DNA from: a virus | Reading direction: 5' to 3' (one strand) | DNA: 64,000 nt | Virus record (IMG/VR): IMGVR_UViG_3300025849_002201 | In this document: piece by piece, positions 29,324 through 33,813 of the stretch | Position numbering within the stretch: the first letter of the stretch is position 1 | Layout: each line of letters opens with the position of its first letter | Made by a program: the position numbers and the translations under genes | The notes under the pieces: model-generated | The model's input: the letters and a program-made list of their open reading frames with translations, nothing else | Databases searched by the model: none | What the model was told of the DNA's origin: nothing

Positions 29324-29399
29324 TGGTCCTACTTCTTGGATTCGAACCAAGCCTCCAAAATCCACAATTTTGTGTGCTAACCACTAACACTAAAGTAGT
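29324..29399 (-). tRNA. trnH: tRNA-His(GTG); A73, no G-1, A1:G72 mismatch
   Basis: Cloverleaf, anticodon arm CAAAA-TTGTGGA-TTTTG, T-loop TTCGAAT, CCA encoded. Confidence 0.85.
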
Positions 29400-29403
29400 A
29401 CGT

Positions 29404-29811
29404 TTAACCTACGATTTCGATATCTACGCTTTCGCTGTAATACCCGTTGCTTGTACCGTACCAGCGAATATCTACACTACCTTTCATAGTTCTGAAACGG
29501 TAGTATGTCCAAGTTTCGCTTTCACTCCATTCGTCATCTTCATATTTGCTTTCGCCGTCGTAGTTGCTTACTTCCTCAACCAACAGCAAAGGAGTTCCTA
29601 CTAAGTCATCCAAGTCACCTACGATGTCTTCAATGCTTACACTCTCGCAACAATCTTGGGCGTGATACATACGCACATAGTGATCTTCAGTCAAGTGGAA
29701 GCGAAGTTCGTAATCATCAAGATTTACTACTTTGCAAAGAATTCGTCCTTGCAAATCTTCAAACGATTTTACTGGATCTTGTAAATGGTTATATGTTGCG
29801 TACTTGCTCAT
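29404..29811 (-). CDS. Hypothetical acidic phage protein
   Basis: Start at MSKYAT with RBS. The longer track ORF overlaps tRNA-Phe. Confidence 0.7.
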   Translation of the reverse strand: MSKYATYNHLQDPVKSFEDLQGRILCKVVNLDDYELRFHLTEDHYVRMYHAQDCCESVSIEDIVGDLDDLVGTPLLLVEEVSNYDGESKYEDDEWSESETWTYYRFRTMKGSVDIRWYGTSNGYYSESVDIEIVG

Positions 29812-29831
29812 CTTGTTCTCTCTACTATAAA

Positions 29832-29907
29832 TGGTGCTAGAGGACGGATTCGAACCGCCGACACCCTGGGCTTCAACCAAGTGCTCTACCAACTGAGCTA
29901 CTCTAGC
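29832..29907 (-). tRNA. trnF: tRNA-Phe(GAA)
   Basis: Canonical cloverleaf, loop TTGAAGC, CCA. Confidence 0.95.
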
Positions 29908-29908
29908 A

Positions 29909-29985
29909 TGGCAGTCCTGAAGGGACTCGAACCCCTAACCTACACGTTCGTAGCGTGTTGCTCTAATCCATTGAGCTACAGGACT
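29909..29985 (-). tRNA. trnR: tRNA-Arg(ACG)
   Basis: Arm ACACG-CTACGAA-CGTGT, CCA. Confidence 0.95.
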
Positions 29986-29989
29986 AAAC

Positions 29990-30060
29990 TGGTAGTAAAT
30001 GATAGAATCGAACTATCTCTTCAGGCTTATGAGACCCGAGTCCGGACCACCGGATTTACT
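29990..30060 (-). tRNA. trnM: Atypical tRNA(CAT), probably Met; 71 nt with miniature D-arm
   Basis: Acceptor AGTAAAT/ATTTACT, loop CTCATAA, T-arm GATAG-TTCGATT-CTATC. D-arm is CCGG-TGGT-CCGG with no U8 linker. Confidence 0.7.
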
Positions 30061-30061
30061 A

Positions 30062-30138
30062 TGGAGTGCATGACAGGACTTGAACCTGCATAAAACGGAT
30101 TTGCAATCCGGGGCCTAACCATTCAGCTACACATGCAC
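30062..30138 (-). tRNA. trnC: tRNA-Cys(GCA)
   Basis: Loop TTGCAAA, U73, CCA. Confidence 0.92.
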
Positions 30139-30139
30139 A

Positions 30140-30214
30140 TGGCTGGGGAGGAAGGATTCGAACCTTCGGTACACAGGATCAAAACCTGTTGCCTTACCGC
30201 TTGGCTACTCCCCA
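30140..30214 (-). tRNA. trnQ: tRNA-Gln(TTG)
   Basis: Arm ACAGG-TTTTGAT-CCTGT, CCA. Confidence 0.95.
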
Positions 30215-30219
30215 AAACT

Positions 30220-30296
30220 TGGTGGACTCTCTGGGATTCGAACCCAGGACCTACCGATTAAAAGTCGGTTGCTCTAACCAGCTGAGCTAAGAGTCC
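30220..30296 (-). tRNA. trnK: tRNA-Lys(TTT)
   Basis: Arm ACCGA-CTTTTAA-TCGGT, CCA. Confidence 0.95.
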
Positions 30297-30297
30297 A

Positions 30298-30382
30298 TGG
30301 TGGGGAAGTGTGGTTACGCTCCACTCCCGGTAAAAGACGAGTTTTACAGACTCGCTGCGGAAACTATCCGCTTTACTTCCCC
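30298..30382 (-). tRNA. trnY: tRNA-Tyr(GTA) with non-canonical T- and D-loops
   Basis: Acceptor GGGGAAG/CTTCCCC, arm CGAGT-CTGTAAA-ACTCG, T-loop AGCGTAA. Confidence 0.8.
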
Positions 30383-30383
30383 T

Positions 30384-30458
30384 TGGTTGCTGTGGGTAGG
30401 ATTGAACTACCGACCTAAGAGTTATCAGCTCTTTGCTCTACCACTGAGCTACACAGCA
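30384..30458 (-). tRNA. trnI: tRNA-Ile(GAT)
   Basis: Arm AAGAG-CTGATAA-CTCTT, CCA. Confidence 0.95.
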
Positions 30459-30464
30459 TTAATT

Positions 30465-30539
30465 TGGCACCGGTGGAGAGAATCGAACTCCCTTCGCGCA
30501 GTTTTGGAGACTGCCGCTCTGCCAATGAGCTACACCGAT
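30465..30539 (-). tRNA. trnW: tRNA-Trp(CCA)
   Basis: Arm GCAGT-CTCCAAA-ACTGC, CCA. Confidence 0.95.
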
Positions 30540-30562
30540 ATAAAACTTTTTCCTTCTTCCAT

Positions 30563-30598
30563 AAAAAAACCCCTACTAATATCGCTACTAGCAGGGGT
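30563..30598 (-). terminator. Intrinsic terminator (attenuator 1) directly upstream of tRNA block 1
   Basis: ACCCCTGCTAGT-AGCGAT-ATTAGTAGGGGT followed by T run. Its 5' arm overlaps the 3' arm of an antiterminator. Confidence 0.9.
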
Positions 30599-30628
30599 GT
30601 GTTAAAATAACTTTTCTTAACTACTACG

Positions 30629-30700
30629 TCAAGACACACTCCTGCCTTCGCTAAACCAGCGAATGCAATATTGTTGAATATGTTTCATCATTGTAGTCAT
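30629..30700 (-). CDS. Leader peptide 1, MTTMMKHIQQYCIRWFSEGRSVS (putative attenuation sensor)
   Basis: 23-codon ORF between a promoter and the terminator. Codons 4-16 encode only M,K,H,I,Q,Y,C,R,W,F, the ten tRNA specificities downstream. Confidence 0.88.
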   Translation of the reverse strand: MTTMMKHIQQYCIRWFSEGRSVS

Positions 30701-32173: not shown

Positions 32174-32177
32174 TAAT

Positions 32178-32199
32178 TGGTAGCAGGTGTTACACCCGC
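32178..32199 (-). other. CCA-ended microhelix resembling the tRNA-Gly acceptor stem
   Basis: GCGGGTG-TAA-CACCTGC-TA-CCA. The first 11 nt are identical to the 5' end of tRNA-Gly(TCC). Confidence 0.5.
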
Positions 32200-32285
32200 A
32201 ATAAACTTTTAAAACTGGCAGTCCAACATGCACTCTTTTAACTTATCCGCCCAGGTCATTCGACAACGATAAGTACCAGTTAATT

Positions 32286-32359
32286 TGGAGCGGGAGAAGG
32301 GAATCGAACCCTCGTAGTAACGTTGGCAACGTTCTGCTCTACCATTGAGCTACACCCGC
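32286..32359 (-). tRNA. trnG: tRNA-Gly(GCC)
   Basis: Loop TTGCCAA, U73, CCA. Confidence 0.93.
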
Positions 32360-32460
32360 AATATATAAACGTATAGGCTCCTACTGAAAGTGCTATACAA
32401 ACTCACCTACACTTTGTTTAACTTGCTCGCTCTATGAGCGTTGTAGGCTTAACCGCAATA

Positions 32461-32546
32461 TGGTGTCAATCGAGGAGTCGAACCTCGCCGCAGTAGGTGA
32501 CATGACGCCTGTAGTGTCTGTTACTGTTAGCGAACCCGCATTGACA
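32461..32546 (-). ncRNA. tRNA-like RNA with intact acceptor, T-arm and CCA but non-canonical D/anticodon domain
   Basis: TGTCAAT...CGAGG-TTCGACT-CCTCG-ATTGACA-CCA. Confidence 0.6.
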
Positions 32547-32550
32547 TATA

Positions 32551-32626
32551 TGGTGGAGGTTACCGGGATCGAACCGATGACCTATTGCTTGCAAAGCAAT
32601 CGCTCTCCCAACTGAGCTAAACCCCC
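32551..32626 (-). tRNA. trnA: tRNA-Ala(TGC)
   Basis: G3:U70, loop TTTGCAA, CCA. Confidence 0.95.
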
Positions 32627-32631
32627 GTTAT

Positions 32632-32708
32632 TGGTCGGAGTACAAGGATTCGAACCTTGGACCCTCTGCTCCCAAAGCAGATGCGCTACCAGGCTGCGCC
32701 ATACTCCG
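32632..32708 (-). tRNA. trnP: tRNA-Pro(TGG)
   Basis: Arm TCTGC-TTTGGGA-GCAGA, CCA. Confidence 0.95.
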
Positions 32709-32806
32709 TAAATTAGTTTAAGCAGTTTTGCGTCCTACTTAGGACGGCCAGTCTCCTGGGCACCATTTGCTCAATTGTTTTACAAGGGGAACAAAACCCT
32801 TAAACT

Positions 32807-32889
32807 TGGTGCCCAATGAGGGACTCGAACCCCCACGCTTTCGCACTGGTACCTAAAACCAGCGTGTCTACCAATTCCACCAATTGGGC
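32807..32889 (-). tRNA. trnL: tRNA-Leu(TAG)
   Basis: Arm CTGGT-TTTAGGT-ACCAG, variable arm, A73. Confidence 0.95.
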
Positions 32890-32950
32890 AATAAGATTCT
32901 AAAGGCTTAACTTGTCCCTACTAGGCAACAAGTGCTAAAGAATCATTGTA

Positions 32951-33026
32951 TGGTGCCGCAACAAGGATTCGAACCCTGGACCTACTGATTACAAATCAGT
33001 TGCTCTACCAACTGAGCTATTGCGGC
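32951..33026 (-). tRNA. trnT: tRNA-Thr(TGT)
   Basis: Arm ACTGA-TTTGTAA-TCAGT, CCA. Confidence 0.95.
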
Positions 33027-33109
33027 GTTATCTTCTTACTCTGCAACTAGGACAAAAATCATCGTGTCCTAGTTCAGTTTTACATTCACTACATGTTTTC
33101 ATATAGTAC

Positions 33110-33331
33110 TTATTCGTCGTTGTTGACATCTTCAACAATATTGAGTTGATAAGAACGAATAATTTGTTCTTCTAAGTCGTTCTTATTAAACTCACCCGAT
33201 TCAAGTCTACGTAGTGCATCAGCTGCACTTGAGGCTTGCTTAGATCTAACTAGATAAGCACATACACCTACTAAGTCTGTTCTGTTGATGCCTGTTGCAT
33301 CCATTGCTTCTTCAATAAAGACTCGTCCCAT
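33110..33331 (-). CDS. Small hypothetical protein within the tRNA array
   Basis: 73 aa. Own promoter TTGACA-16-TATACT at 33370-33397. Confidence 0.6.
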   Translation of the reverse strand: MGRVFIEEAMDATGINRTDLVGVCAYLVRSKQASSAADALRRLESGEFNKNDLEEQIIRSYQLNIVEDVNNDE

Positions 33332-33406
33332 GTGTGTAACCTTTCATGCGTTACTGTTTCTATACATTAAGTATAACACCTACACCGTAGATGTCAACCT
33401 GTTAAA

Positions 33407-33481
33407 TGGAGCGGGTGACAAGGATCGAACTTGCGACGAACAGCTTGGAAGGCTGACACTCTACCACTGAGTTACACCCGC
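33407..33481 (-). tRNA. trnG: tRNA-Gly(TCC)
   Basis: Loop CTTCCAA, U73, CCA. Confidence 0.95.
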
Positions 33482-33485
33482 ATAT

Positions 33486-33580
33486 TGGCTTTCCAGCTAC
33501 CTTAGGAGTTTACCCTATAGTGTTTCACTTTACGCTATGACAGCTTTTAACTGAGAGATCATAGCAACTAAGACTGGAAA
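33486..33580 (-). ncRNA. CCA-ended RNA with tRNA-like acceptor stem and non-tRNA body
   Basis: 5' TTTCCAG pairs with 3' CTGGAAA-G-CCA. Internal stems GCTATGA/TCATAGC and CTTAG/CTAAG. Confidence 0.55.
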
Positions 33581-33582
33581 CT

Positions 33583-33670
33583 TGGCGGAGCGACTGGGAG
33601 TCGAACCCAGTGACCGTTTGCACGGTCTACAGATTAGCAATCTGCTGCATTACCATCCTGCCCCCGCTCC
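33583..33670 (-). tRNA. trnS: tRNA-Ser(GCT)
   Basis: Loop TTGCTAA, long variable arm, G73. Confidence 0.95.
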
Positions 33671-33737
33671 GTAAACATATCCCCGATTTATCAGATTCGT
33701 TGCATCAGCTATACTGTATGCAGGATATGTTTAAACT

Positions 33738-33813
33738 TGGCTCCCAAGGACGGGCTCGAACCGCCGACCCAGTGATTAACAGTCACTTGCTCTACCAACT
33801 GAGCTACTTGGGA
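33738..33813 (-). tRNA. trnN: tRNA-Asn(GTT)
   Basis: Arm AGTGA-CTGTTAA-TCACT, CCA. Confidence 0.95.

Follow-up and report, generated by a model that had tools for sequence, protein, structure and literature searches.

The tRNA cluster of an uncultured marine T4-like myovirus, located at positions 29,324 to 33,813 of the 64,000-nucleotide (nt) stretch of viral DNA analyzed here (IMG/VR record IMGVR_UViG_3300025849_002201, hereafter the window), likely forms two tRNA operons, with entry into each controlled by a multivalent leader-peptide transcription attenuator. Directly observed are the sequence anatomy of the cluster, the concordance between leader codons and tRNA genes, the covariation of both in relatives, and the alternative RNA pairings. 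Block 1 runs from tRNA-Trp to tRNA-His and block 2 from tRNA-Asn to tRNA-Glu, all on the minus strand, as are the long open reading frames (ORFs) of the window, whose G+C content is ~0.39. The original prediction had described two separately controlled blocks of exactly ten amino acids each. Each block does have its own leader and terminator; however, block 2 is not under its attenuator alone.

Both blocks are preceded by a short ORF whose codons match the tRNAs encoded behind it. Leader ORF 1 (23 codons, MTTMMKHIQQYCIRWFSEGRSVS; 30629..30700, minus strand), recognized by codon analysis, by a 13-mer scan and in relatives, encodes in the 13 consecutive codons 4-16 all ten amino acids of block 1 and no others, and this 13-residue stretch is the only one of its kind in the six frames of the 64 kb. 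All of these core codons are readable by block-1 tRNAs; tRNA-Arg acg, for instance, is matched by a CGC codon and tRNA-Ile gat by ATT codons. Leader ORF 2 (28 codons, MKLVLTSVEYSTVGSSNPGADACGVCKS; 34266..34352, minus strand), identified by codon analysis and in relatives, has a 20-codon core made of 19 block-2 codons, which represent all ten amino acids of the block, and one Tyr codon. The match reaches the duplicated tRNAs: TCA/TCG and AGT correspond to the two Ser tRNAs, and GGA and GGT to the two Gly tRNAs.

A strictly cognate codon was present in the own leader for 10/10 tRNA species at leader 1 and 12/12 at leader 2. Random leaders built from phage codon usage achieved such full coverage in 0.0002 of the trials for leader 1 and 0.022 for leader 2. 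Core codons belonging to the own versus the other block numbered 13/0 and 19/1, respectively (Fisher p = 2.4e-8; p = 0.003 when whole ORFs are counted). The six-frame scan of 13-residue stretches was uninformative for the ten block-2 amino acids because these are common, and its matches fell inside ordinary proteins. Shine-Dalgarno-like sites lie 9-12 nt before the leader 1 ATG (GAG/AGAG) and upstream of leader 2 (AAGGAA).

Only two strong intrinsic terminators were found on the minus strand within 28800-34600, and each lies between a short leader ORF and a tRNA block. Terminator 1 (30562..30598; 30598-30569 in the terminator scan) has a 13-pair stem followed by T7 and is placed 22 nt upstream of tRNA-Trp, as seen by terminator scan, folding and alignment. 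Terminator 2 (34204..34242; 34242-34211 in the scan), detected by terminator scan, duplex prediction and folding, has a 14-pair stem and T7. Each leader ends in codons that can base-pair with the 5' flank and 5' arm of its own terminator. In attenuator 1, the last leader codons form region 2 (GCAGGAGUGUGU; 30634..30645, minus strand; duplex, alignment and masked folding), and their partner is region 3 (ACACACCCCUGC; 30591..30602, minus strand; duplex and alignment), which overlaps the 5' arm of the terminator. The GCAGGAGUGUGU and ACACACCCCUGC duplex has a predicted energy of -20.1 kcal/mol (z -3.6), and the antiterminator duplex of attenuator 2 has -19.2 kcal/mol (z -4.0).

The strands involved diverge in relatives yet stay complementary, as in the pairs GGGGUAUGUCU with AGACAAGCCCC, GGGGUUC with GAACCCC, and GCUUGGAGGGU with GCCCUCCAAGC, the last of which pairs at -33 kcal/mol. 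Across instances, region 2:3 duplexes range from -17 to -33 kcal/mol, with z between -2.3 and -7.9 in most. When 16 type-1 elements were aligned (A2), pairing in the antiterminator register extended to 84% of cells, compared to 24-56% with the strands slid, and three pairs change on both sides. The terminator pairs in 92% of cells of the same alignment, with compensatory changes present. When the nascent RNA was folded with the ribosome footprint masked, the antiterminator formed with the A-site at codons 4-14 of leader 1 or 4-18 of leader 2, and it was lost from codon 16 (leader 1) or codon 20 (leader 2) and also with the ribosome at the stop codon. The A-site span that permits the antiterminator coincides with the regulatory codons.

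No close DNA relative of the phage was present among 50,697 phage records, and a near-identity search against cultured phages returned short tRNA matches only. The nearest cultured relatives are cyanomyoviruses, with ~30-38% protein identity, and tblastn with neighboring proteins gave relatives that were 27-38% identical at best. The window was found nearly whole in marine and estuary metagenome runs and partially in metatranscriptomes. For comparison, 214 IMG/VR loci (L numbers below) were gathered by means of three neighboring proteins and one DNA pattern.

The proposed concordance between block and leader holds in these relatives, where leaders change with tRNAs that are gained, lost or moved between blocks. 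In relatives of the 427-residue gene located downstream of tRNA-His, the attenuated block begins with Trp, and its content and its leader vary together. L089 carries Trp-Pro-Tyr-Cys behind a leader with ...NYLYWCPP..., in which two TAT codons accompany tRNA-Tyr. The leader of L099 and L108 (Trp-Pro-Cys) contains ...TCWPP..., that of L091 and L119 (Trp-Pro-Ser(tga)-Cys) three to six TCR codons, and that of L083 (Trp-Lys-Gln-Cys) three Q together with W, C and K. In L100, L102 and L123, where the genes are Trp, tRNA(cat), Pro, Cys and Arg, the leader reads ATA TGT ATA ATA TGT TGG CCN CCA, and in L105 and L121 (Trp, Ile(tat), Pro) it has three to five ATA codons. ATA leader codons occur with tRNAs tat or cat (L100, L105, L121 and L137), and ATT leader codons with tRNA-Ile gat (window, L120 and L125). 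The tRNA-Ile(tat) genes are themselves unusual. At ~91 nt (L105 1113-1203, L121 4326-4416 and L137 10419-10509, plus strand), they have an insertion of ~20 nt past the anticodon loop, which is either a long variable arm or an intron.

Larger arrays behave in the same manner, and relatives with two leaders are the most informative. L120 has the ten block-1 tRNAs and the leader as in the window. Block 2 of L125 opens with tRNA-Tyr, and Y is retained in leader 2 but lost from leader 1 (…KQHCIRWF). In L003 and L211, the Trp and Gln tRNAs belong to block B, whose leader includes W and Q, and the Glu tRNA to block A, whose leader includes E; L211 also has tRNA-Tyr in block A and Y in leader A. The type-2 leader of L204 has W and C, and its block the Trp and Cys tRNAs, while the single 25-codon leader of L058 lists all 16 amino acids with downstream tRNAs. 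The leader and tRNA changes listed above represent several separate events. Relatives conserve the leader ORFs, some of which begin with GTG, and the ORF, the terminator and the 2:3 complementarity recur across lineages with unrelated leader sequences.

Pooling 19 non-redundant leader/block pairs from the window and its relatives, 116/122 tRNA species were covered by their own leader. Random leaders covered a mean of 65 and a maximum of 81, and leaders permuted among blocks a mean of 82 and a maximum of 101, with 0/5000 sets reaching 116. The pooled 2x2 table at the amino-acid level gave p = 7e-31. These p-values overstate the evidence because related sequences are not independent. Orphan leader codons make the rule leading from leader to tRNA weaker than that leading from tRNA to leader.

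The stretch that codes for SNPG in type-2 leaders (34296-34312 in the window, minus strand) is conserved at the DNA level also in L125, L003 and L204, which are distant phages. Its small hairpin (CGGAU-loop-AUCCG) could serve as a polymerase pause hairpin. A scan for the SNPG[AV]D-coding pattern returned 11 loci, seven of which were chance matches in unrelated frames; the four genuine loci were L204, L211 and contigs of L125 and L003. All tRNA matches of the 123-kb contig of L125 fall in one cluster. Most relatives of the 192-residue gene located upstream of leader 2 have no tRNAs nearby, and in the small-set relatives no leader was seen before the Asn-Ser-Gly-Thr-Leu tRNAs. Directly downstream of the leader-gated arrays of L003, a distant relative, lies a GOLLD RNA (RF02032, 194.7 bits; 9964-10426, plus strand) with an embedded tRNA.

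From this anatomy we infer ribosome stalling, read-through, promoter timing and the sensed signal. The leader ORF would be translated as RNA polymerase transcribes the leader. A scarce tRNA would slow the ribosome at its codon and leave region 2, at the 3' end of the ORF, free to pair with region 3 in the 5' arm of the terminator; no terminator would form, and polymerase would enter the tRNA genes. With quick decoding, the ribosome would reach the stop codon and cover region 2, so that the terminator forms and transcription ends. Each tRNA set is therefore probably made only when ribosomes slow on the leader codons. Because each leader has at least one cognate codon per downstream tRNA, each operon would be a closed feedback loop on its own tRNA supply.

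The promoters differ between the blocks. Leader 1 is preceded by a sigma-70-like promoter, TTGACA-17-TATATT with ATAAATA in the spacer (30736..30764, minus strand; promoter scan), and a promoter-like site of the form gtggTTGACA-N17-TATAxT is conserved upstream of type-1 leaders in relatives. No promoter was found in the window between terminator 1 and tRNA-Trp, and in type-1 relatives the tRNA-Trp gene mostly begins 7-33 nt past the T-run, the distance being 87 nt in L119. Block 1, which would serve low-use amino acids with no promoter past the terminator, thus appears to be always gated. Upstream of leader 2, motif comparison revealed an ATAAATA core (34381..34387, minus strand) within GATGATAAATAA, 35 nt before the ATG and without a TTGACA box. 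L125 and L003 have the GATGATAAATAA motif at the same 35-nt spacing from their type-2 leaders. The core resembles that of the T4-type late promoter, and the site presumably acts as a promoter.

Past terminator 2, 200-600 nt with consensus sigma-70-like promoters separate the terminator from the first tRNA. The window has two such sites (34072..34187, minus strand; promoter scan), with 12/12 (at 34187) and 10/12 (at 34100) matches, and L125 has three. The same scan placed two further promoters inside block 2, at 33397-33370 (11/12 matches) and 31787-31760 (12/12 matches), and one for the next gene after tRNA-His at 29316-29288 (12/12 matches), all on the minus strand. Block 2, with its high-use amino acids and extra sigma-70-like promoters past and inside the attenuated unit, is probably made constitutively early in infection and would come later under feedback from the late-type promoter.

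ARAGORN and Rfam (at gathering score) called the same 21 tRNAs, all on the minus strand and with the coordinates and anticodons originally assigned to them. Block 1 comprises Trp cca, Ile gat, a Tyr-like RNA gta, Lys ttt, Gln ttg, Cys gca, Met cat, Arg acg and Phe gaa (29832..30539; ARAGORN, Rfam and folding), followed by a 135-residue ORF (29404..29811; DUF7448, phrog_2650 by family match) and the final member, tRNA-His gtg (29328..29398; ARAGORN). In block 2, all 12/12 of the claimed genes (E, D, V, S twice, G twice, A, P, L, T and N) were called by both tools. They begin with Asn gtt (33813-33738), Ser gct (33670-33583) and Gly tcc (33481-33407), together spanning 33407..33813, continue with Thr tgt, Leu tag, Pro tgg, Ala tgc, a tRNA-like element, Gly gcc, Ser tga, Val tac and Asp gtc (31925..33026, with folding as additional evidence), and end with tRNA-Glu ttc (30799..30873).

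The original listing of one tRNA each for H, F, R, M, C, Q, K, Y, I and W in block 1 stands for nine of them, while Tyr was called by neither tool. The 'Tyr' RNA (30383-30298, minus strand) was left uncalled by ARAGORN and had no Rfam match even at E<=10. Its predicted fold is a cloverleaf that presents a GUA anticodon (-32.3 kcal/mol, z -3.7), with an intact acceptor stem of 7-8 bp followed by ACCA. Its 5-bp D-stem carries a 5-nt D-loop without GG, its 4-bp T-stem a T-loop AGCGUAA, and its 12-nt variable region is unpaired. L120 has a canonical tRNA-Tyr in the same position, between Ile and Lys, and with the same acceptor ends, so that the 'Tyr' RNA appears to be its divergent ortholog. Coverage of all 20 amino acids in a 10+10 arrangement is thus qualified: 19 are covered by tool-called tRNAs, and Tyr is included only if the non-canonical cloverleaf is counted. 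When it is, each amino acid is represented once except Ser and Gly, which are represented twice. Another tRNA-like element (32461-32546, minus strand), between tRNA-Ala and tRNA-Gly, has a 7-bp acceptor stem with CCA and a canonical T-arm; it lacks the D and anticodon arms and was called by no tool.

The set had also been proposed to be a complete backup translation kit rather than an instrument of codon-bias tuning. At best, it is complete by amino acid, as TTR, AGR, probably ATA, and the initiator are uncovered. ARAGORN found no Leu(taa) or Arg(tct) tRNA in the window, as predicted, and the phage codons without a cognate tRNA in the window include TTR (41% of Leu) and AGR (36% of Arg). ATA, 22% of Ile codons, probably belongs to them as well unless the single CAT tRNA is Ile2. 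No initiator-type tRNA was seen in the window; block 2 of L120 has an extra CAT tRNA with a C1xA72 mismatch, an initiator-type mark. The single CAT tRNA of the window (29990-30060, minus strand; Rfam 29.6 bits) has a miniature D-arm (CCGG-UGGU-CCGG) and is 100% identical to the block-1 CAT tRNA of L120. The two internal ATG codons of leader 1, which contains no ATA, favor its being elongator Met. The window encodes a 204-residue PP-loop ATPase (42136-42750, minus strand) of PF01171, to which the catalytic domain of TilS belongs, and relatives of the phage have CAT or TAT tRNAs along with ATA-rich leaders; the ATPase may be a phage lysidine synthase. Since the U34 tRNAs fit the favored A-ending codons of the phage, codon-usage tuning may be a role of the set.

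It is the two leader ORFs and terminators, which the original observation did not include, and not the numerical symmetry, that show the partition to be non-arbitrary. Relatives do not conserve the exact 10+10 split: the two blocks of L125 cover 9 and 10 amino acids, those of L003 and L211 cover 7-8 and 11, L058 has at least 16 amino acids behind one leader, and most relatives have 2-5. Absence of overlap between the blocks, also noted originally, was observed, but it is weak evidence. With Ser and Gly as the sole duplicated amino acids, it follows almost of itself, and a random gene order cut 10|12 gives it with P ~0.07. Several gaps in the cluster could serve as cut point. The claimed bias of block 1 toward split boxes and of block 2 toward four-codon boxes exists but is modest (9/10 vs 4/12 tRNAs, Fisher p = 0.011). 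Amino-acid usage separates the blocks better than codon-box type. Block-2 amino acids make up 66% of the residues in window ORFs compared to 34% for block 1 (Mann-Whitney p = 0.00085), and they are nine of the ten most used, plus Pro. Division by aminoacyl-tRNA synthetase class was tried and was not significant (7/3 vs 3/7, p = 0.18). In the three lineages with two leaders, four-box tRNAs except Arg stay behind the type-2 leader. As far as these genomes tell, the exact 10+10 split is incidental to the lineage, and the conserved rule is that the leader lists the tRNAs behind it. The set would then be divided by amino-acid demand, with different promoter architectures for its halves.

These data can be taken one step further, to a two-channel closed-loop tRNA homeostat in which each leader is a translated checklist, any tRNA shortfall re-supplies the whole set, and the combination of a gated low-demand channel with a promoter-boosted high-demand channel is adaptive. 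We consider this extended reading about evenly balanced between right and wrong. In such a homeostat, the shortfall could stem from an ill-matched host, from decay of host tRNAs, or from their cleavage by anticodon-nuclease defenses.

Several observations weigh against attenuation as described here. Covariation in the type-1 alignment is modest, the observed score being reached by 18/500 shuffles, and kinship of the sequences inflates the pooled statistics. The minimum-energy fold at equilibrium is always the terminator, and therefore the antiterminator must win kinetically. The ribosome-free nascent fold also favors the antiterminator, unlike the textbook lock between regions 1 and 2; codons 6-12 pair with region 2 in the full-length minimum-energy fold, whereas the ribosome-free nascent fold keeps the 2:3 pairing. 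Orphan codons occur in leaders, such as Y in leader 2 of the window, for which block 2 has no tRNA, Q/S/P/ATA in some relatives, and others in L106, L107 and L116. Because a leader has no more than one or two codons for each amino acid, it may respond poorly when a single tRNA is scarce. Finally, the sigma-70-like promoters past terminator 2 would bypass the attenuator and weaken control of block 2.

These weaknesses leave room for other explanations. The attenuators might be real and yet sense aminoacylation or general translation capacity, working as a timing or stress switch for the whole cluster that responds to amino-acid starvation or to a late-infection shortage of ribosomes. Such a switch would be in keeping with classical attenuators (the trp, his, ilv and thr leaders), which respond to the level of charged tRNA regardless of what alters it, with the weak specificity that one or two codons for an amino acid confer, and with the motif resembling late promoters that precedes type-2 leaders. 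A general sensor, however, would need neither the exact list of downstream tRNAs nor codon-level matching, and the leaders have both: ATA is distinguished from ATT, TCR and AGT appear together, as do GGA and GGT, and leaders follow Tyr, Trp, Gln and Glu when these move between blocks. Moreover, amino-acid starvation is not relieved by more tRNA. We therefore regard a general sensor as improbable.

Somewhat less improbable, although still unlikely in our opinion, is that the partition has no functional meaning: arrays would have grown by accretion and exchange, leaders would have co-evolved with them, and the link to usage and codon boxes would be a historical by-product. Relatives differ widely in block content, with leaders followed by as few as 2 tRNAs and by at least 16, which is consistent with this, and so are the switching of Tyr between blocks and the position of Pro, which is in the attenuated Trp block of small-set relatives and in block 2 of the window. 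Leader 1 and its block share ~79% DNA identity between the window and L120, compared to 61% for the flanking 427-residue protein, which fits module exchange. Accretion does not readily account for the strong usage split (p = 0.00085) or for the fact that all three two-leader lineages keep the high-use four-box tRNAs, apart from Arg, behind the promoter-rich type-2 leader. The most skeptical explanation, that the small ORFs are chance frames or micro-proteins, that the hairpins merely end upstream operons and that the codon match is coincidental, can point to the abundance of small ORFs in AT-rich DNA and to terminator 2, which also ends the transcription unit of the upstream 192-residue gene. 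We find it hardly credible given how rarely random leaders reached the observed coverage (0.0002 and 0.022 of trials), the failure of all 5000 random or permuted sets to reach the pooled value, and the recurrence of ORF, terminator and 2:3 complementarity with unrelated leader sequences.

The mechanism proposed for these tRNA operons is known ribosome-mediated attenuation; what is new is the tRNA-gene target and the feedback logic. Enterobacterial attenuators (ilvGMEDA, sensing Leu/Val/Ile; thr, sensing Thr/Ile; trpL, hisL, leuL and pheL) have the same short translated leader ORF with regulatory codons followed by an intrinsic terminator, and the same antiterminator strand in the last ORF codons, masked by the ribosome at the stop codon. 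In the ilvGMEDA and thr leaders, as would be the case in the phage, one leader senses several amino acids. However, enterobacterial attenuators control biosynthetic enzymes and not tRNA genes. Because the controlled genes in the phage are tRNA genes, their product would feed back directly on leader decoding. Enterobacterial leaders also have runs of codons for one to three amino acids, whereas each phage leader lists 10-12 tRNA species with one or two codons each, and they belong to cellular operons rather than to a phage element with bypass promoters at block 2.

Two other systems invite comparison. In E. coli, phenylalanyl-tRNA synthetase (pheST) is controlled by leader-peptide attenuation through the pheM leader. 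There too, a leader attenuator acts on a translation component and reads the state of the tRNA pool, although a single amino acid is sensed and a cellular synthetase is controlled instead of tRNA genes. T-box riboswitches likewise monitor a specific tRNA and attenuate transcription of translation-related genes, but they bind uncharged tRNA directly via a specifier codon and involve neither a ribosome nor a leader ORF. No T-box matched Rfam in the window at gathering score, nor within 28500-35000 at E<=10.

Large phages such as T4, T5, KVP40 and cyanomyoviruses have tRNA clusters that have been proposed to compensate for codon usage, to replace host tRNAs that are degraded, or to provide an escape from anticodon nucleases. 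The cluster described here resembles them in its near-minimal set, its U34 tRNAs for four-codon boxes, and its interspersed small ORFs and tRNA-like RNAs; it differs in that the arrays are placed behind codon-matched leader attenuators. To our knowledge, accounts of large-phage tRNA clusters treat their expression as promoter-driven. Full-text literature searches returned no account of leader-peptide attenuators before tRNA genes or phage tRNA arrays, and a match to 'tRNA operon' concerned proM supercoiling rather than attenuation.

How phage tRNA genes are regulated, and why some phages keep near-complete sets, is unsettled. If attenuation is correct, the phage would gauge decoding speed codon by codon and make tRNAs on demand. 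The homeostat, if true, would represent a previously undescribed logic of tRNA-gene control that is widespread in large phages. Codon compensation, host-tRNA replacement and escape from tRNA-cleaving defenses would become testable as competing ideas with simple reporters. In addition, the leaders would offer a sequence-only readout of tRNA identity, with ATG codons pointing to elongator Met for the CAT tRNA of the window and ATA codons to Ile identity for CAT or TAT tRNAs in relatives. They would also mark operon boundaries, and their compact multi-input sensor design may be of use in synthetic biology.

The remaining parts of the cluster, all on the minus strand, are less easily assigned. Within block 2, ORF and promoter scans of the region 33028..33397 identified a 73-residue ORF (33331-33110), a small Cys-rich ORF and the internal sigma-70-like promoter, and family searches of this region returned no match. 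ORF, family and promoter searches of 31171..31787 gave a 187-residue ORF without assigned function and the second internal sigma-70-like promoter. Directly 5' of tRNA-Asn, a structured non-coding stretch with two T-arm-like hairpins (33816..33983) can be read from the sequence, and a second ORF-free structured stretch lies upstream of tRNA-Glu (30880-31142). Both may be processing signals, tRNA remnants or small RNAs.

Outside the cluster, also on the minus strand, the window contains several auxiliary genes, encoding a Bax1-inhibitor family membrane protein (35381-36067), a ClpP protease (36231-36848), a peroxiredoxin-type redoxin (51728-52258) and a ferredoxin-dependent bilin reductase (62087-62773). 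A 679-residue protein (53093-55132) combines a CHASE2 sensor domain with an adenylate/guanylate cyclase domain, and FecR-like (57250-58371) and CsgG-like (59052-59921) genes adjoin it. Structural proteins of the window match T4-type baseplate families. Among its ORFs is one of 2717 residues (13630-21783), with an N-terminus like that of T4 gp9/gp10 as its sole family match, which is a candidate giant baseplate or fiber protein.

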